DNA of 50,064 nt from Acidimicrobiales bacterium (GTDB taxonomy: Bacteria > Actinomycetota > Acidimicrobiia > Acidimicrobiales > SZUA-35). The translations under genes were made by a program, and so were the position numbers. Shown here in pieces: positions 1,233 through 24,837 of the stretch (positions are counted from its first letter, which is position 1; each line of letters begins with the position of its first letter). Under the pieces are notes generated by a model. It was given only the letters and a program-made list of their open reading frames with translations, searched no databases and was not told the origin of the DNA. The DNA lies in contig JAHDFH010000001.1 of the NCBI GenBank assembly GCA_020628305.1, positions 1 to 50,064 of the forward strand, in the 5' to 3' direction.

Positions 1233-1829
1233 GTGACTTATATTGCGTTTGAAGGTCCTGAAGGGTCGGGAAAGAGCACTCAAGCCGCTCGTTTAGCCAA
1301 GAAAACAGGCGCCTTGCTCACTCGAGAACCTGGCGCCACTCAGCTGGGAAAAAGCATCCGTGAAGCACTACTTTCTAACTCTGGTGCTGAAATATCAGCC
1401 GAATCTGAAGCCATTTTGATGGCAGCTGACCGAGCGCAAACAACAAGAGAGATAGTTGTTCCAGCAATGAAGCGAGGACAGCATGTGATTACCGACCGTA
1501 GCGTCTATTCGTCTTTCGCTTATCAGGGGTATGGGCGTGGTTTAGAACTGGAGTACTTGCGTGAGCTGAATAGGTTGGCTCTAGCTGATGTCTGGCCACA
1601 ATACGTTGTGTTGATCGACCTTCCTGCTGAGGCTGCTATGGGGCGCCTTAACAGAGAGTTGGATCGCTTCGAGCTTGCCGGTGAAGACTTTCACCAACGG
1701 GTAAATGCGGGTTACAAAGCTATGGCCCAGGCGAACCCGGACAGCTGGATAGTTGTGGACGGATCAGGTTCTGTTAAGCAGGTTGAAGAGCGTGTCTGGG
1801 GAAAGGTCCGCTTCATCTTTGAGGGCTAG
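1233..1829 (+). CDS. tmk: thymidylate (dTMP) kinase
   Basis: P-loop FEGPEGSGKST, TREPG, DRSVYSSFAYQG; next to holB. Confidence 0.96.
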   Translation: MTYIAFEGPEGSGKSTQAARLAKKTGALLTREPGATQLGKSIREALLSNSGAEISAESEAILMAADRAQTTREIVVPAMKRGQHVITDRSVYSSFAYQGYGRGLELEYLRELNRLALADVWPQYVVLIDLPAEAAMGRLNRELDRFELAGEDFHQRVNAGYKAMAQANPDSWIVVDGSGSVKQVEERVWGKVRFIFEG

Positions 1830-1863
1830 CCTCAGGACATTTGCCCCCGTCTCCATTGTCCCT

Positions 1864-1885
1864 TGTCGTAGCTTTGGGTTAGGAT
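1864..1885 (+). promoter_or_regulatory. PafBC/RecA-NDp-like DNA-damage promoter
   Basis: TGTCGT-N10-TAGGAT versus consensus TGTCGG-N10-TANNNT; ATG 6 nt downstream of the -10 (leaderless). Confidence 0.55.
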
Positions 1886-1891
1886 GCAGTC

Positions 1892-2263
1892 ATGAATTCG
1901 CAAAACACGCAAACACCTGCAGAAACAAAGTCAACTGAGAACGCTCCGTCTTTCCGTAAAACTAAGAGCGGCAAGTGGGCTGTAATGGGCCCAGTTGAGA
2001 CACTGCAGAAGGCCCTCGATGGTGACGGCAAGGTTGATGTATTGAAGAAGTCTGGTGACTGGAGTAGTTACACAGTTGTTTCTTTGGGCAAGCCTTTTGA
2101 TGTTGATGGCACCTCGATGTGTTACGGATATGACACTGTTGATGAACAGCCTTCTCAGCAAGGTGGCGGAGATATTGATCTGTCTAAAGCCCCAGTACAG
2201 GAAGATGGCGAACCTTTGCCGCAATTCCAAGGTTCTGAAGAAGACACCGAAGCACCTTTTTAA
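1892..2263 (+). CDS. small beta-rich protein with SSB-like acidic C-terminal tail
   Basis: 123 aa; basic/aromatic core (FRKTKSGKWAV...KKSG...GKPF...YGY), flexible Q/G linker, ends EEDTEAPF. Confidence 0.8.
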   Translation: MNSQNTQTPAETKSTENAPSFRKTKSGKWAVMGPVETLQKALDGDGKVDVLKKSGDWSSYTVVSLGKPFDVDGTSMCYGYDTVDEQPSQQGGGDIDLSKAPVQEDGEPLPQFQGSEEDTEAPF

Positions 2264-2271
2264 ACTAGTTG

Positions 2272-3345
2272 ATGGATTCCGAGCTCATAAATTTGATCTG
2301 GGATGGCTTTCCTGGTCAGGATAATGCAAAGGCACAACTTAATGCAGCTGCGCTTAATCAGGTGCATGCCTACATGTTTCTCGGCGAGTCCGGAACCGTA
2401 GATGCCGCTTTTAGATTTGCTGCTTTAGTTCAGGTTCAAGCCAATGACCTTGAAGGCTCTGAAGCTTCTAGAGTGATCGATCTTTGCCTACGGCAAAGCC
2501 ACGCAGATGTGATTTCTTTCGAGCCTGAAGGTTCGACACTGAGAGTGTCAGATGCAGAACAGATCATTGCAGCTTCGGCCACCACGCCTCTTGAGTCAGC
2601 TAAAAAAGTACTGATTGTTACCGGAGTTGATGAGATCGAACCAGCGGCTATTGGCAAGCTTCTCAAAGTTGTAGAAGAGCCACCACCTTCAACAGTTTTT
2701 GTGTTGCTCGCACAGAGCGTGTTGCCAGAAATCATCACCATTGCAAGCCGCTGCACACAGATTTTGTTTGCCCCTTTCGCAGAAGAAGCGTTAGTAAAGC
2801 ATCTGGTGGAAACCGGAGTTGATTCAGCAACTGCAGAGCTTGCAGCGCAAACCTCTGGCGGAAATATTGAACGTGCCAAACTGTTGGCAACTGACCCTAA
2901 CTTGGCGGCACGCAACAACTTTTGGAAAGCAATACCCTACAAACTGAATGGTAGAGGGGCAGTGGTTTCTCAGCTAGTCAACGAAGTGGAGGCCAAGATA
3001 GCTGAAGTGTTGGAGGTCTTGGAAGCAGAACAGGCAAACGAGTTGGCACGACTTGATGAAGCGATCAAGGAGCAGAAAGCCACCAATCAAGAACGCTCAA
3101 GAATGATAGCTAGTCACAAGCGGGCCGTTAGGAAGCTTCGCACTCAGGAGCTAAAATCAGGGCTATCGCTTATTGCAGGAACTTACAGAGATGCGATAAC
3201 CACAGCAGTTGGAACCCAAGCTGCTGATGAGCTTTTTGCAGCCAGCGATGCAATAGCGCTGGCCAATGAGTCACTCATCAGAAACCCCAACGAGGCTCTG
3301 CTGCTGCAAGATTTATTCTTCAAACTGCCTTCTTTGAACAGTTAG
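2272..3345 (+). CDS. holB: DNA polymerase III subunit delta'
   Basis: HAYMFLG, HADV, LLKVVEEPP, TIASRC motifs; tmk-holB-tRNA-Thr synteny. Confidence 0.9.
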   Translation: MDSELINLIWDGFPGQDNAKAQLNAAALNQVHAYMFLGESGTVDAAFRFAALVQVQANDLEGSEASRVIDLCLRQSHADVISFEPEGSTLRVSDAEQIIAASATTPLESAKKVLIVTGVDEIEPAAIGKLLKVVEEPPPSTVFVLLAQSVLPEIITIASRCTQILFAPFAEEALVKHLVETGVDSATAELAAQTSGGNIERAKLLATDPNLAARNNFWKAIPYKLNGRGAVVSQLVNEVEAKIAEVLEVLEAEQANELARLDEAIKEQKATNQERSRMIASHKRAVRKLRTQELKSGLSLIAGTYRDAITTAVGTQAADELFAASDAIALANESLIRNPNEALLLQDLFFKLPSLNS

Positions 3346-3404: not shown

Positions 3405-3477
3405 GCCCGGATAGCTCAGTTGGTAGAGCAACTCATTCGTAATGAGTAGGTCGCGAGTTCAATTCTCGCTTCGGGCT
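3405..3477 (+). tRNA. tRNA-Thr(CGT)
   Basis: Cloverleaf: GCCCGGA/TTCGGGC acceptor, GCTC/GAGC D-arm, ACTCA-TTCGTAA-TGAGT anticodon arm, GCGAG-TTCAATT-CTCGC T-arm; no encoded CCA. Confidence 0.96.
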
Positions 3478-3509
3478 CTTGTCTGGTCCAGCACGTCAAT
3501 GGAGCGTTG

Positions 3510-20043: not shown

Positions 20044-23000
20044 GTGTTTGACGTCAAAAAGCTAGCCATTGTTGGCAGTGCTGTGGTTTTCTTATCCGTC
20101 CTTAACGGAATTGGCGCCAACGCTATTCCGGTGGCGCAAGAGCCGGCTACTGAAGCTGTTATCGAAGTCATGGTTGACGGAGTTGAACCGTTCGATTCAA
20201 CAACTTTCGATCCTGGTTCTGGAGCGGAGTTTGGTAACGACGCTAACGATGCGAACGGTATTGTGCGCAACTTCGATGCGGTCCAGTATCGAGTGGAAGT
20301 ATCTCTGAACGATGCTGATGACACCAACCTTCACACCACACTCACGCTTTCGGATAATGCTTACTGGTCTGGTGTTCCTCTCGAATGTAAAACCGCTGAA
20401 GATCTGTTTTTCGGATCACCAACTTCAGAGCTGTTAGATCTGAACGCTGACGGGTTGGCCGAAACCCTTGTCTGCAATTTCGGGGATCATTCAGAAGGCA
20501 CCAAGCTTGCTATTGAACCAATAGCAATAGCCGCTGGAAATAACGGCGAAACAATGACCGCCTCTATCACTTCTACTAGCGATGCAAGCGTGTCTGATTG
20601 GAACAGTGACCCGGTTGACACGATCATCACGGCAGACTTTGGCATCGGTATCTCAAAAGCGGTTGCCGGTTTGCCAAGAGATCAGAAAGTGGACTACCAA
20701 GATCGCTACTATGCGGCTTCTGTATATGGTGCTGAGGGCAGAGTAGTTGAGTGGCATATTTCCCTGAACTACAACCCAGGTTCAGAGTACGTTGATGATG
20801 ATGGAACAGGCGTGCAGAGCTTCACCCTTACCGACACTTGGGTAGGAACTCACAGCAATGATCCTTCGGTCGAGGGAGATAACGCTAACGGCGTCTACAA
20901 CGACGGAATTGTCCTCTTTGGTGACATCGCTGGTGACCCGCTAGAGTCGTGTGCTCTGCTCACACCAGTTTCTGGTGCGACCGTAACTTGTACACAGCCC
21001 GGCCCTGGTGAACCAATCACGATTCAGATTGACGATGCCCCTGTCAACCAGGCGACGATGGCTACGGTCAGAATGCAGCTTTGGTTCCCATTCAGTTCGA
21101 TCTTCGTTCCAAACACGCTTGATAGGGCAGAAACTTACGATGTGAACAACACAGTTGAACTTACAGGTTGGGGCGGGGCAGGCACTCTCGTAACTTCACA
21201 AACCGGTAGCGTTGATCCGGGCCCAGAAATAGCTAGCGATGATTGGCTTATTTCAGCTTCGAACAGTGGTGGCTTCCTGGCTTATTACAAGACGTTCGAC
21301 AATCTGGGCGGCTTCAAAACTGGGCAACGCGCGGCAGGCATTGGTGATGAAGTAGAGACGTCTTTGGTTCTCCAGGATAATTCTCCTAGGGATCTCAACA
21401 TCGGTATTTGTGACACACTCGACACTACATCGTTAGAGTTTGCTGGAACTGACGGTCCTTTGCAGAAGGACGCAGTTATTAACGGGCAATCCAATAACAC
21501 TACATACAGTAGAACTGACAGAGACGTTGGTTGGGAGTCTTTGCATAACCGCTTCAATCCTGTGCTTAATGCAAGAATCACCGGAGTAACTGGCAATCAC
21601 TATGACGCAACCGACGTTGGGGTAACAGTCCAGTTCAGCGATGTTGACTATGCAGCCACGGGCGATGACCACTGGACGGCTACTTGTGAAGACGATCTAA
21701 CTGGCGACGGCAACAGCGACTGGGTCGATGATTACAACGATCTCCCTGGCGGAGAAAGTTCGGTAGTGCGAGTCCGAATGCTTTGGGACAAACAGAGCAG
21801 CGTGTTAGCGACGCTAGATAACATTTACGGCACTTACCAAGTTTTCTATTCTTTCAATGTTCGTATCAAGCCAACCGCAACGGTAAACAGCTACATCCCT
21901 AACACGGCAAGTATTTTGACCAACTCCGGTGTCTGGTTTGAAACGATTGGTGGCGGTCCTCTTTACAGAGATACTGAAACAGATCCAACCAACGCCCTTT
22001 ACTCTTTCGATGCTTTCAACGCAGACCGTATTTGGGTCCTCCCGGCGTCAATGACAATAGACAAAACTAACGAGCCACTTGGCGCACAGGGTCCTTACGG
22101 GGCAGGCGATATTGCCACTTTCCGTATCACACCGAGTATTTCGGGATCTGGCCCAGCAGACCAGACAGTAACTATCTATGACAATTTGCCCAATGAATTG
22201 GCCTATGTGTCAGATGATTGCGAAGCGGCAGCCTCAGCGCTGGGCTTAACCTGTACAACTACTCTCTTAGGTGATGATGCTACGTGGACAATTACTGGCT
22301 ACACAATTGGTGATCCACTCCCAAGTATCGTGCTTGAGGCAGAAGTCAAAGCTGGTACCCCAGCTGGCGCCTATACAAACGGAGTCTTTATAGAAACAAC
22401 TTGGCCTGACCTTGCCGATGACTCACATTGCGACACGGCTGTCAACAGCAATGGGACCGTAACTACCACGTCACAAAGAGAGTGTCGTAATGCGGTTGTT
22501 GCAGGTCACGTGAGCCGAGCGACAATCCTTGTGCCGTCCGAGGCTGGTGAGTCTGTTGTCAAGTCTGATGAGTTGGTAATCACAGAGCCAAACGCTGATT
22601 GGGTTACTGAGTTGACTTACACCAATCTGGGTGGCTCGGATTTTGGTCCCGGTCAATTGATTGATGTTGTGGCGTTTAATGGTGATGGTGTTGTCGGTTC
22701 GTCTACTGAGCGATTTAACCAGCCAACGGAGAACCCAGCTAACGCCAACACAGAGACCAATACTTCTGATCAAGATGGTCGGGTTGATTTTGTGTCTGTT
22801 ACGCCGTCGGCTGCTGGTGAGACATTTGAGTACACGACTACGGATGCTGCGTTGGTTGATATTAGGCCGTGTGCTCCGTCTAACTGGCCTGCTGGTGACA
22901 GCCTCGGTTCTGGTAATGCTTTGCTAGATCAGATTTGTGGCCTTGGTTTGGTAGATCCAGCTACAGACATCCCAACTGCTTCTCAGACTGGTACGGGGGC

Positions 23001-24837
23001 AACCGACTGGACGGCCGCTGCTAGCGCTGATGTGACGGCTATTCGTGCTTCGTTGCCAGCGTTTGCAGCTGGTGAAGCTGAGAGAACAATAGCGTTAACC
23101 ATGAACGTCGCCTTTGCTCATGAAGGTGACCTTCTGTGTAACAATTTTGGCTTGAACTCTGAGATTGTGACGCTTGACATCATCTCTAACGATGTGTGTG
23201 TTGAAGTGGTGTCTGGCTCGATCGGCGATTATGTGTGGGCTGATAGTAATGGTGATGGGGTTCAGGATGCTGATGAATCACCTATTTCTGGCGTGACGCT
23301 TAAGTTGTTGGATGGTGCTGGCAATCCTATTCTCGATGAGGACGGCAACCCAATGACAGCAGTGACGGACGCTGATGGTCTGTATTTGTTTGAGGAGCTT
23401 CCGTCTGGTGACTACACCGTGATGGTTGACACTGCGACTCTGCCTGCTGGTTTGACTCAGTCCTATGATTTTGATGGTGCTGGAGACGATATGTCTGTTA
23501 CTAGCCTTGTTGGTCCTGCAACTGATCCCACGTTGGTGGATGTTGAGGATGATCTAGATCAAGACTTTGGCTATTTGGCAGGGTCGATTGGCGATTATGT
23601 GTGGATTGACACTAATGGTGATGGTGTACAAGATTCGGATGAACTGCCTATTGAGGGGGTGACTGTTAAATTGCTGGACGCAGCAGGTGGCCCTGTGTTG
23701 GACATTAATGGAGATCCGGTTACGACTGTGACCGATTCTGCTGGTCTGTACTTGTTTGACAATGTTGCTTTCGGTACCTATACGGTGATGGTTGACGAGT
23801 CAACTTTGCCTGCTGGTTTGTCTCCAACTTATGACTTTGATGGTGGCCTAGACTCGATGTCTGTAGTCACAATCGATCTGACTAACCCGCATGACCGTGA
23901 TCAAGATTTCGGTTATCTATCTGGTTCTATAGGTGATTATGTTTGGTTCGATGCTGATGGTGACGGTGTTCAGGACACCGATGAGGACCCTATCGCTGGT
24001 GTGACGGTGAAGCTGTTGGATGGCGCTGGTGATCCGATCTTAGATAGTTCAGGCAATCCGGTTACGGCTGTGACCGATTCTGCTGGTCTGTACTTGTTTG
24101 ATGATCTTCCACTCGGTGACTACATAGTGATGATTGACGAGACCACTTTGCCTTTAGGCGTTGATCAATCTTATGACTTTGACGGTGGGCTCGATAACAT
24201 GTCTGCAACAACGTTGAGTGCTGCGGCGCCTGATGACCGTGACCAGGACTTTGGTTATGTTCCTCCGGTGTATGATGTTGCTTTGTTGGTTGATGTGGCC
24301 GCAGGTACTGGCTCGGAGCTCTCTGTGGGCGATGATGTCACATTCGTGATTGACGTTATGAATCAGGGTGACTTGGATGTTTGTAATGTCGGTGTTATTG
24401 CTTATATTCCCGAGGGTCTAATACTGAATGACCCTGCTTGGGAGCTTGATGCAGACGGCAACGCTGTGTTGGTTGATCCAATTGATGGCATTCCAGCAGG
24501 GATGATGGTCTCTGTGAATATTGTGTTTACAATCGCTGATGGTGCGTCTGGTGATTTGACGCTACTTTCTGAGATAACGGAGTTCTACGGTGCTGATTGT
24601 TTAGAAGCTGTTGATATCGACTCATTTGCAGATGGTGAGCTGGGCGATGTTGTGGTTGATGGGGTAGTGGACGGCACAGACGGAGACGAGGACGACTCAG
24701 ACATTGCTGTTATTACAGTTGTTGGCACAGATGCTATTGCCTTTACAGGCGCATCGACATCGCTCCTGGTTGGGGCCGGTTTGCTTGTACTAGCAGCTGG
24801 ACTGCTACTTCGCAGAAGACTGCAACTTAGCCATTAA
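20044..24837 (+). CDS. large cell-wall-anchored adhesin-like protein (SdrD B-like repeats, DUF11-like domains)
   Basis: Signal peptide; three GSIGDYVWxDxxGDGVQD repeats; C-terminal IAFTG + TM + RRR sortase signal. Confidence 0.88.
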   Translation: MFDVKKLAIVGSAVVFLSVLNGIGANAIPVAQEPATEAVIEVMVDGVEPFDSTTFDPGSGAEFGNDANDANGIVRNFDAVQYRVEVSLNDADDTNLHTTLTLSDNAYWSGVPLECKTAEDLFFGSPTSELLDLNADGLAETLVCNFGDHSEGTKLAIEPIAIAAGNNGETMTASITSTSDASVSDWNSDPVDTIITADFGIGISKAVAGLPRDQKVDYQDRYYAASVYGAEGRVVEWHISLNYNPGSEYVDDDGTGVQSFTLTDTWVGTHSNDPSVEGDNANGVYNDGIVLFGDIAGDPLESCALLTPVSGATVTCTQPGPGEPITIQIDDAPVNQATMATVRMQLWFPFSSIFVPNTLDRAETYDVNNTVELTGWGGAGTLVTSQTGSVDPGPEIASDDWLISASNSGGFLAYYKTFDNLGGFKTGQRAAGIGDEVETSLVLQDNSPRDLNIGICDTLDTTSLEFAGTDGPLQKDAVINGQSNNTTYSRTDRDVGWESLHNRFNPVLNARITGVTGNHYDATDVGVTVQFSDVDYAATGDDHWTATCEDDLTGDGNSDWVDDYNDLPGGESSVVRVRMLWDKQSSVLATLDNIYGTYQVFYSFNVRIKPTATVNSYIPNTASILTNSGVWFETIGGGPLYRDTETDPTNALYSFDAFNADRIWVLPASMTIDKTNEPLGAQGPYGAGDIATFRITPSISGSGPADQTVTIYDNLPNELAYVSDDCEAAASALGLTCTTTLLGDDATWTITGYTIGDPLPSIVLEAEVKAGTPAGAYTNGVFIETTWPDLADDSHCDTAVNSNGTVTTTSQRECRNAVVAGHVSRATILVPSEAGESVVKSDELVITEPNADWVTELTYTNLGGSDFGPGQLIDVVAFNGDGVVGSSTERFNQPTENPANANTETNTSDQDGRVDFVSVTPSAAGETFEYTTTDAALVDIRPCAPSNWPAGDSLGSGNALLDQICGLGLVDPATDIPTASQTGTGATDWTAAASADVTAIRASLPAFAAGEAERTIALTMNVAFAHEGDLLCNNFGLNSEIVTLDIISNDVCVEVVSGSIGDYVWADSNGDGVQDADESPISGVTLKLLDGAGNPILDEDGNPMTAVTDADGLYLFEELPSGDYTVMVDTATLPAGLTQSYDFDGAGDDMSVTSLVGPATDPTLVDVEDDLDQDFGYLAGSIGDYVWIDTNGDGVQDSDELPIEGVTVKLLDAAGGPVLDINGDPVTTVTDSAGLYLFDNVAFGTYTVMVDESTLPAGLSPTYDFDGGLDSMSVVTIDLTNPHDRDQDFGYLSGSIGDYVWFDADGDGVQDTDEDPIAGVTVKLLDGAGDPILDSSGNPVTAVTDSAGLYLFDDLPLGDYIVMIDETTLPLGVDQSYDFDGGLDNMSATTLSAAAPDDRDQDFGYVPPVYDVALLVDVAAGTGSELSVGDDVTFVIDVMNQGDLDVCNVGVIAYIPEGLILNDPAWELDADGNAVLVDPIDGIPAGMMVSVNIVFTIADGASGDLTLLSEITEFYGADCLEAVDIDSFADGELGDVVVDGVVDGTDGDEDDSDIAVITVVGTDAIAFTGASTSLLVGAGLLVLAAGLLLRRRLQLSH
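23212..24260 (+). repeat. three tandem SdrD-B domain repeats
   Basis: Units start at ~23212, ~23578 and ~23920; 46-bp near-identical stretch at 23714-23759 and 24056-24101. Confidence 0.85.

Follow-up and report, generated by a model that had tools for sequence, protein, structure and literature searches.

A small protein with an SSB-like acidic tip on a core of no recognised family, behind a PafBC-type promoter in an uncultured member of the Acidimicrobiales

What is the role of a small protein that ends like SSB (single-stranded DNA-binding protein) but has no recognisable SSB core? The question is raised by a 123-residue protein (P0001) encoded between tmk and holB in the Acidimicrobiales bacterium assembly GCA_020628305.1 (lineage SZUA-35), on contig JAHDFH010000001.1. 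Positions 1 to 50,064 of this contig were analysed; "the window" means this whole stretch of 50,064 nucleotides, and "the window genome" the assembly to which it belongs. A preliminary description had proposed a domesticated protein binding single-stranded DNA (ssDNA), or a competitor for SSB partners, induced by DNA damage. Its tail, the pafBC genes and the class of repair promoters hold up; an SSB-type core, conservation of the promoter box and the tmk/holB surroundings do not. Family libraries, solved structures and the literature all failed to supply a name for the protein, which, to judge from its sequence, carries the tip of an SSB without the core of one. The reading that we favour, tentatively, is that it is a damage-induced carrier of an SSB-like tip, which may engage SSB-client enzymes as an adaptor or a competitor.

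The preliminary description had given the coordinates, the letters and the C-terminal end EEDTEAPF of the open reading frame (ORF) correctly. A word-indexed search returned 265 candidates, 259 of which are homologues at E ≤ 0.001, and the ORF is borne out as a real, conserved gene. The few homologues that carry a name are assigned to Acidimicrobiales, to Actinomycetota and, once, to a "Deltaproteobacteria" metagenome-assembled genome (MAG). Seventy loci lie in species-representative genomes, all titled as Acidimicrobiales, Acidimicrobiia, Acidimicrobiaceae, Actinomycetota or actinobacterium MAGs. Within the GTDB family of the window, 24 other genomes were searched with a profile built from A1, an alignment of 40 homologue sequences. 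Eighteen of them have the gene, and these 18 together with the window genome (G000) represent 11 genera. Outside the family the same profile did not find it in any of 16 genomes of the order, in any of 200 sampled across the class or in any of 400 sampled across the phylum; these genome searches are samples, in which only the best first-look candidates were scored. In these samples the gene is well conserved and found only in one family of uncultured Acidimicrobiales.

The protein consists of three parts, namely a core of about 65 residues, a variable linker rich in Gly, Ser and Pro, and a conserved acidic tail. A1 contains 25 invariant columns, 20 of them in the core (residues about 19-82). 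The linker, which is also rich in Ala, differs in length by tens of residues among homologues. In the full-length AlphaFold2 model the mean predicted local distance difference test score (pLDDT) is 70.7, with values of 82-88 for the core, 51-52 for the linker and 63-68 for the tail.

The likeness to SSB resides in the tail. The family pattern is EP[LMI]Px[FY][QR]G..[ED]DEW..F, and its elements were counted in 71 distinct sequences from 87 locus rows, with L030 and L105 left out since the anchor pattern missed their core. EP[LMI]P.[FY][QRE]G occurs in 68 of the 71, [DE].W-x(1-3)-end in 66, and a C-terminal Phe with [ED]DE before it in 65, two of the exceptions appearing to be truncated or frameshifted. 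The divergent members are the window protein itself and a relative from the same genus (G201), which lack the Trp and end in EEDTEAPF and AEDEQPF, respectively. The SSB of the window genome, a protein of 146 residues encoded between rpsF- and rpsR-like ORFs, ends in ...ATYNPNEEPF, and the SSBs of five relatives end in PAYNPDEEPF, PAHNPNEEPF, PNYDPNEEPF, PAYQPDEEPF and PAYNPDEEPF. All 29 further SSBs taken from other families of the order terminate in PF after an acidic run, most with a Tyr 5-8 residues from the end. When six tails and the six SSB tips from their own genomes are aligned using MAFFT, they agree in a Pro, an aromatic position, Gln/Asn, an acidic triplet and the Phe at the end. 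The acidic, Phe-terminated end on which the earlier proposal rested is, in short, a family property that aligns with the SSB tips of the same genomes. Of the window genome's 6220 stop-to-stop ORFs with 80 residues or more, only SSB and the 123-residue ORF match the tail expression, which is weak evidence because the pattern was written post hoc, when both sequences had already been seen.

Other SSB-tip-like ends occur in the window genome. Contig C23 (4965-5666, minus strand; L162) encodes a 224-residue ORF without a Pfam match, which matches the phage SSB family phrog_743 (E 4e-30) and ends in DFDDDIPF, an E. coli-type tip as against the NEEPF of the host; it could belong to a prophage, or to a phage contig that was binned with the genome. 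A 167-residue protein of no family on contig C10 (7178-7732, plus strand; L161) ends in SDSGDDIPF, and a DUF5655 protein on contig C71 (24620-25117, plus strand; L163) in PDDIDDPF.

The core could not be assigned to any described family. Its invariant positions are FRKTK, W29, A30, G46, V50, K52, G55, S64, G66, F69, V71, G73, M76 and Y78-G79-Y80. A Pfam scan of the protein at E ≤ 1 returned no family, SSB included, in agreement with the earlier remark that the core lacks canonical SSB motifs; the Pfam SSB profile (PF00436) does detect the canonical SSB of the window genome, on contig C5, at E 2.6e-35. No NCBIfam, PHROGs or PADLOC family was found for the protein, and scans of 18 distant relatives against Pfam and of 19 against PHROGs gave no family for the core. 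A core-only AlphaFold2 model, based upon a 108-row alignment, reached a pLDDT of 92.6 and a predicted template-modelling score of 0.77 with the order beta, beta, alpha and four beta strands, but neither this nor the full-length model had a clear match among solved folds. Foldseek against the PDB gave best E values of 0.2 and 0.24, and VIA-align against 48,161 chains best Z values of 3.5 and 3.3, with no chain of SSB or of the oligonucleotide/oligosaccharide-binding (OB) fold prominent in either; nothing reached E ≤ 0.001 or Z ≥ 5. The two best rows in BFVD are uncharacterised phage proteins (E 0.013 and 0.02), and in the ESM Atlas the leads, to viral hypothetical clusters, were weak (0.84 and 0.81). 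By sequence and by model the core is not recognisable as an OB or SSB domain, with the reservation that weak or missing structural matches do not exclude a fold, OB included. Comparison of the A2 profile with PDB sequences gave matches only to zinc-ribbon stretches of bL32 (E about 0.1), which concern the tails of distant relatives and were set aside.

The core does belong to a wider family. Searched exhaustively with phmmer, 1.84 billion cluster representatives yielded 189 matches at E ≤ 0.001, only 9 of them at E ≤ 1e-10. Most are proteins of 90-160 residues with the core [FY]RKTK.GEW..GP ... V.V.KKDG ... G.PF.VDG...YGY; their tails differ and often possess Cys-x2-Cys pairs resembling zinc ribbons. 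Comparison of A1 with the wider-core alignment A4 using hhalign gave a probability of 99.7% and E 7.7e-27 over 70 columns, and BLASTP to a member on a viral contig gave E 2e-12 and 35% identity; these sequence comparisons confirm homology to an unnamed core family that has no Pfam entry. In P0172 (644 residues, metagenomic) the core is the N-terminal module of a UvrD-like helicase, and in P0161 (1374 residues, metagenomic) it lies N-terminal to LRV repeats, a treble-clef finger, DUF7146 and a Toprim-like domain. Fusions of this kind, to a UvrD-like helicase and to Toprim, and the zinc-ribbon tails of distant relatives point to DNA-related work. Cluster look-up of ten distant relatives provided no informative names. 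Matches in FG-GAP, ankyrin and Tc-like repeat proteins (P0134, P0135 and P0219) were discarded as spurious, being 36-45 residues long and within repeat regions.

The resemblance to small actinophage proteins suggested in the preliminary description is partly upheld. Core homologues are present on six IMG/VR contigs; in two of these the core lies among small ORFs of no assigned function, with an integrase near one and a repressor and an endolysin near the other. Such contigs are temperate-phage-like. Neither P0001 nor P0138 had a tblastn match in 50,697 deposited phage records or in plasmids, and PHROGs gave no match. The wider core is rare in representative genomes, occurring in 1 of 400 in the phylum sample, there in two copies; in this genome (G403) these lie at C88:4861-5031 and C132:7515-7676, in 80-residue open frames.

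The second line of evidence is the promoter. The in vivo motif of PafBC is tGTCgg(N10)tA(N3)T, with a strictly conserved GTC triplet and without a -35 element, according to the portions of PMC8635444 and PMC6789036 that deal with it. The site TGTCGT-N10-TAGGAT noted previously upstream of the 123-residue gene was confirmed, and it matches every well-conserved position of this consensus. A scan with the sigma-70 consensus found no -35/-10 pair for the gene on the plus strand, which agrees with PafBC promoters, where the -35 is missing. Since the ATG lies only 6 nt past the -10 hexamer, the mRNA is probably leaderless. The regulator expected from such a box is also encoded: on contig C118 a Pup-ligase-family gene is directly followed by two WYL ORFs of 349 and 317 residues, with a second Pup-ligase-family gene 2 kb away, and from WYL domains and position this locus is identified as a pafA-pafB-pafC arrangement. 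The window genome also contains lexA and recA.

Is the box more than a chance match? As a bare motif TGTCG-N11-TANNNT is not over-represented genome-wide: its 51 sites fall short of the roughly 72 that base frequencies predict. All 256 tetranucleotides were ranked by their occurrence 16 nt before TANNNT where a start codon follows 5-9 nt later and opens an ORF of at least 100 residues. TGTC-N12-TANNNT has 183 sites in the genome, of which 28 are of this leaderless type, and TGTC ranks first of the 256 (28 against a mean of 5.9, sd 3.0; runner-up 16). Twenty-six of the 28 genes were scanned, a 107-residue ORF and one ORF nested in another being left out, and 14 of the 26 are concerned with DNA repair or replication. 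The six TGTCG sites precede LigD-PrimPol, RmuC, dUTPase, LigA, UvrA and the 123-residue gene. The 20 TGTC[ACT] sites include those of a 5'-3' exonuclease, Lhr, Tag, a DnaX-like ATPase, DinB, UvrB, an HNH endonuclease and RuvC; a C-terminal fragment of DnaE, probably an internal start, also follows such a site, and the other 11 genes are ArgRS, HisRS, an ABC transporter, MsrA, an Rv2466c-like protein, a hydrolase, an SH3_3 protein, an antiporter fragment and three unassigned. In recA, TGTCAG-N10-TAGCTT lies about 50 nt before the ATG, that is, with a leader. These counts support the view that the leaderless TGTC-N12-TANNNT class marks a DNA-repair regulon in the window genome. There is good evidence, at the level of sequence comparison, that the 123-residue gene belongs to the PafBC-type regulon of this organism, because its box has exactly the layout seen at uvrA, rmuC and dut, where the start likewise follows after 6 nt; from this we infer induction by DNA damage.

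The commonest box of the class reads TGTCAGAG/TG. A second site in the window, TGTCGG-N10-TATATT (24387-24408, plus strand), lies within the gene of a 1597-residue, repeat-rich surface protein (20044-24837) and, for that reason, was taken as chance.

Comparison of 71 distinct upstream regions of orthologues reveals a -10-like hexamer, very often cCATACT, 5-9 nt before the start in 52, which suggests leaderless mRNAs. The remaining 19 lack such a hexamer, and 15 of these have Shine-Dalgarno-like leaders. Among loci L017-L104, compared over the 45 nt that precede the start codon, the unusual cCATACT is common to many orthologues of high-GC genera and stands 6-7 nt before the ATG. In the subclade L017, L043 and L045 a near-palindrome, GTCGAACG-N5-CGTTCGAC, is situated just upstream of cCATACT; its spacing is not that of the actinobacterial LexA box, so it may be the operator of another regulator.

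The coordinates of the gene, its parts and its neighbours are collected in Table 1. The start of holB lies 5-8 nt past the stop of the 123-residue gene, and no terminator-like site was found between the two in a scan of the plus strand; the two genes are probably co-transcribed in the window genome, as far as this arrangement indicates. Comparison with loci L156-L159 shows that four of five relatives have tmk directly next to holB or overlapping it, without spacer or promoter in between, and because of this the 123-residue gene with its promoter (window 1830-2271, about 440 bp) is best regarded as an insertion at the junction within a tmk-holB operon. In the fifth relative (G202) no tmk was seen beside holB. 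In G201, a genome of the same genus, the homologue follows holB at a distance of about 2.7 kb and has the same orientation. A mobile cassette at the junction was considered and dropped, as there are no flanking repeats of note. On the minus strand (156-1064) the window also contains a 302-residue ORF without a Pfam match, the C-terminal third of which is of low complexity and rich in Arg, Thr and Pro; this ORF may be over-extended.

Table 1. Position of the 123-residue protein gene, its promoter elements, predicted protein segments and neighbouring genes in the window
Feature	Position	Strand	Remarks
tmk, upstream neighbour	1233..1829	+	PF02223, E 6e-41; stop 62 nt before ATG of the 123-residue protein gene
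-26 element TGTCGT, PafBC-type promoter	1864..1869	+	fits the consensus; TGTC is the top 4-mer at this position genome-wide
-10 hexamer TAGGAT	1880..1885	+	10 nt after TGTCGT; 6 nt before ATG at 1892
123-residue protein (P0001), coding sequence	1892..2263, stop included	+	sole ATG-initiated ORF at the site; 259 homologues; alignment A1
Core domain, residues 19-82	1946..2137	+	predicted beta-beta-alpha-beta-beta-beta-beta; conserved FRKTK.GKW, VLKKSGDW, SLG.PFDVDG, MCYGY
Linker, residues 83-100	2138..2191	+	variable, low complexity; gapped, unconserved A1 columns; pLDDT about 51-52
Conserved acidic tail, residues 101-123	2192..2260	+	window: AP.QEDGEPLPQFQGSEEDTEAPF; family consensus PPRD.SEPLPEYQGGPEDEW...F
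holB (DNA polymerase III delta'), downstream neighbour	2269/2272..3345	+	PF13177, E 4e-24
tRNA-Thr(CGT)	3405..3478		downstream of holB

A possible mode of action may be outlined as follows. The gene's own PafBC-type promoter, inserted between tmk and holB, would drive a leaderless mRNA that probably includes holB. PafBC would sense ssDNA, and the 123-residue protein would rise with the DNA-damage regulon. Its tail, with the aromatic residue, the acidic triplet and the terminal Phe, would imitate the host SSB tip and fill the pockets on genome-maintenance enzymes that normally take that tip. As an adaptor the protein would bring those enzymes to the ligand of its core; as a competitor it would titrate them away from SSB. 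The partners of the tail and the ligand of the core are, like the leaderless start, inferred. A bolder version, which we think unlikely, casts the protein as a regulator of the SSB interactome in which a phage-derived, non-OB nucleic-acid- or lesion-binding module is joined to a copy of the host SSB tip and switched on by DNA damage; repair helicases, nucleases, polymerases and perhaps the co-transcribed clamp loader would then be redirected to a second platform or withheld.

A number of observations weigh against the protein being a damage-induced carrier of an SSB-like tip. The preliminary description had looked to conservation of the upstream motif, and this was not found: of the 52 orthologue promoters, 3 have GTC precisely at -26, where about 0.8 are expected by chance. 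The three are the window promoter, L041 (TGTCAG-N10-AATACT) and L019 (aGTCcg-N10-CATACT); in two more, L057 (TGTCGG-N9) and L025, the GTC is one base off. This speaks against damage control as a conserved property of the family, and induction by damage may be particular to a few genomes. The comparison is a blunt one, as uvrA and ruvC of five relatives carry the strict motif in only one of five each. The location between tmk and holB is correct for the window genome and, being an insertion, fails as a conserved context, with tmk or holB within 1.5 kb of the gene in 0 of 18 relatives; the 31 ORFs found beside the gene at 12 loci fall into families that are unrelated, so no partner can be read from the surroundings. 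The gene is missing from 6 of the 24 family genomes and is therefore dispensable. In the window itself AGGA within TAGGAT, 7 nt before the ATG, could act as a weak Shine-Dalgarno sequence on a transcript reading through from tmk. The net charge of the core, counted from the sequence, is only about +1. Finally, the tail has a two-residue insert (GG/GS), and W-x-x where SSB tips have Pro, and the extended pattern with the invariant Glu-Pro is present in only 11 of 35 SSBs and in 0 of the 6 from the window's own family; this stretch thus does not resemble SSB and may make a different contact. The extended Glu-Pro pattern was accordingly dropped as a feature held in common with SSB.

Four other explanations have to be weighed against a damage-induced tip carrier. 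The protein might be a true alternative SSB, damage-induced and built on a non-OB platform, in which the core, perhaps oligomeric, binds ssDNA and the tail recruits partners as an SSB tip does. The succession of core, disordered linker and acidic, Phe-terminated tip is that of SSB, beta1 (FRKTK.GKW) and the beta3-beta4 hairpin (KKSGDW) hold conserved basic and aromatic residues, and distant relatives are fused to a helicase or Toprim or carry zinc ribbons. We nevertheless regard this as unlikely, given a core that is nearly neutral overall, the missing Pfam SSB match, fold searches without a clear solved match (Foldseek E 0.2, VIA Z 3.5), by which OB is neither shown nor excluded, and a canonical SSB already present in its rpsF-ssb-rpsR context. 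If instead the box were an incidental match, the gene would encode a small, lineage-specific protein of phage origin, made constitutively from a leaderless mRNA and with a role unrelated to DNA damage. The orthologues lend this some weight, since most lack the box and have a -10-like.ATACT, often cCATACT, 6-9 nt before the ATG, their genomic context varies, and relatives of the core reside near integrase, repressor and endolysin genes on viral contigs. What makes it rather improbable is the window box itself, with its exact spacing and a 6-nt start distance identical to that of uvrA, rmuC and dut, together with a promoter class strongly tied to repair genes and three further orthologues from other genera that carry TGTCAG-N10, TGTCGG-N9 or aGTCcg-N10.

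The remaining two alternatives concern the tail. It may address a partner that is not an SSB client, either as a mimic of the FtsZ C-terminal peptide, the protein being a damage-induced division inhibitor, or as a ligand of the Pup-proteasome system. Damage regulons often hold a small division inhibitor (SulA, YneA, DidA), none of the family's six SSB tips has the invariant EP[LMI]P.[FY], and the tail loosely resembles, via [LV]P.F, the end of the window genome's FtsZ (...DDDFDVPSFLK). This resemblance spans only 3-4 residues, however, and FtsZ here ends in FLK, whereas the near-invariant acidic stretch closed by a C-terminal Phe is a feature of SSB tips; on balance such a partner appears quite improbable. 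Very improbable, in our estimation, is an acidic tip that is mainly auto-inhibitory, folding onto the basic face of the core and gating its binding of nucleic acid, with recruitment secondary or absent. Effects of this kind have been described for the acidic tips of Hfq and SSB; for Hfq, autoregulation by such tips is reported in the abstracts of PMC5606850 and PMC6561178. The core has a conserved basic patch, and in the full-length model the pLDDT of the tail (63-68) exceeds that of the linker (51-52); the precise 23-residue pattern, with its Pro, Gly and terminal Phe, is on the other hand more than charge mimicry needs. We retain the damage-induced carrier of an SSB-like tip as the preferred, if tentative, interpretation.

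Comparison with known systems helps to define what is new. Bacterial SSB (PF00436) possesses, in the same order, a folded core, a low-complexity Gly/Ser/Pro linker and an acidic tip with a C-terminal Phe, but its core has about 110 residues and the OB fold, whereas that of the 123-residue protein has 65 residues and no Pfam or structural SSB match, and the tail of the latter has the additional conserved EP[LMI]P, GG and Trp. Some SSBs of phages also have acidic tails like those of the host; they include the phrog_743 protein of contig C23 and combine an SSB-tip-like end with a protein outside PF00436 and presumably engage host SSB clients through it; the core family of the 123-residue protein likewise has relatives on viral contigs. 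Unlike these phage proteins, however, the 123-residue protein has no PHROG match, is chromosomal, is conserved in at least 11 genera of one family, and has a tip of the EEPF-like type of the host order and not the DDIPF type of the C23 protein. DinI is a small damage-regulon protein with an acidic C-terminal part that acts on RecA filaments via an acidic helix. Modulators of this type offer a parallel in being small damage-regulon proteins whose acidic C-terminal part may imitate another macromolecule; the imitation is by an acidic helix in DinI and would be by a Phe-terminated, SSB-like peptide here. We know of no described member of the PafBC regulon that resembles the 123-residue protein. 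With the PafBC (WYL) regulon of Actinobacteria, as described in part of PMC8635444, the window genome shares tGTCgg-N10-tAnnnT without a -35 and the presence of pafA-pafB-pafC, and its promoter class precedes recA, uvrA, uvrB, ruvC, ligA and dinB; the box is, by contrast, absent from most orthologues of the 123-residue gene. Nothing pertinent to SSB-tip mimics was found in the literature searched, where the papers concerned PafBC itself, SSB tips or unrelated subjects, a search that excluded the supplementary tables of the PafBC regulon studies.

The protein is confined to one family of uncultured bacteria, and its function is predicted from sequence. The survey nevertheless sketches by computation, for the first time, a leaderless DNA-damage regulon of PafBC type in an uncultured Acidimicrobiales genome, one that includes dnaX and, through the insertion, holB. 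SSB tips are a common docking signal for many bacterial genome-maintenance enzymes. Under the bolder version, the protein would stand as the first damage-inducible mimic of an SSB tip that is chromosomal and built on a new fold. Should the proposed role be true, its core would add a new small domain family with phage relatives and with fusions to helicase and primase, and access to the SSB interactome would be seen to be itself open to regulation, through a tip placed on a different, unrecognised fold and carried within a damage regulon.

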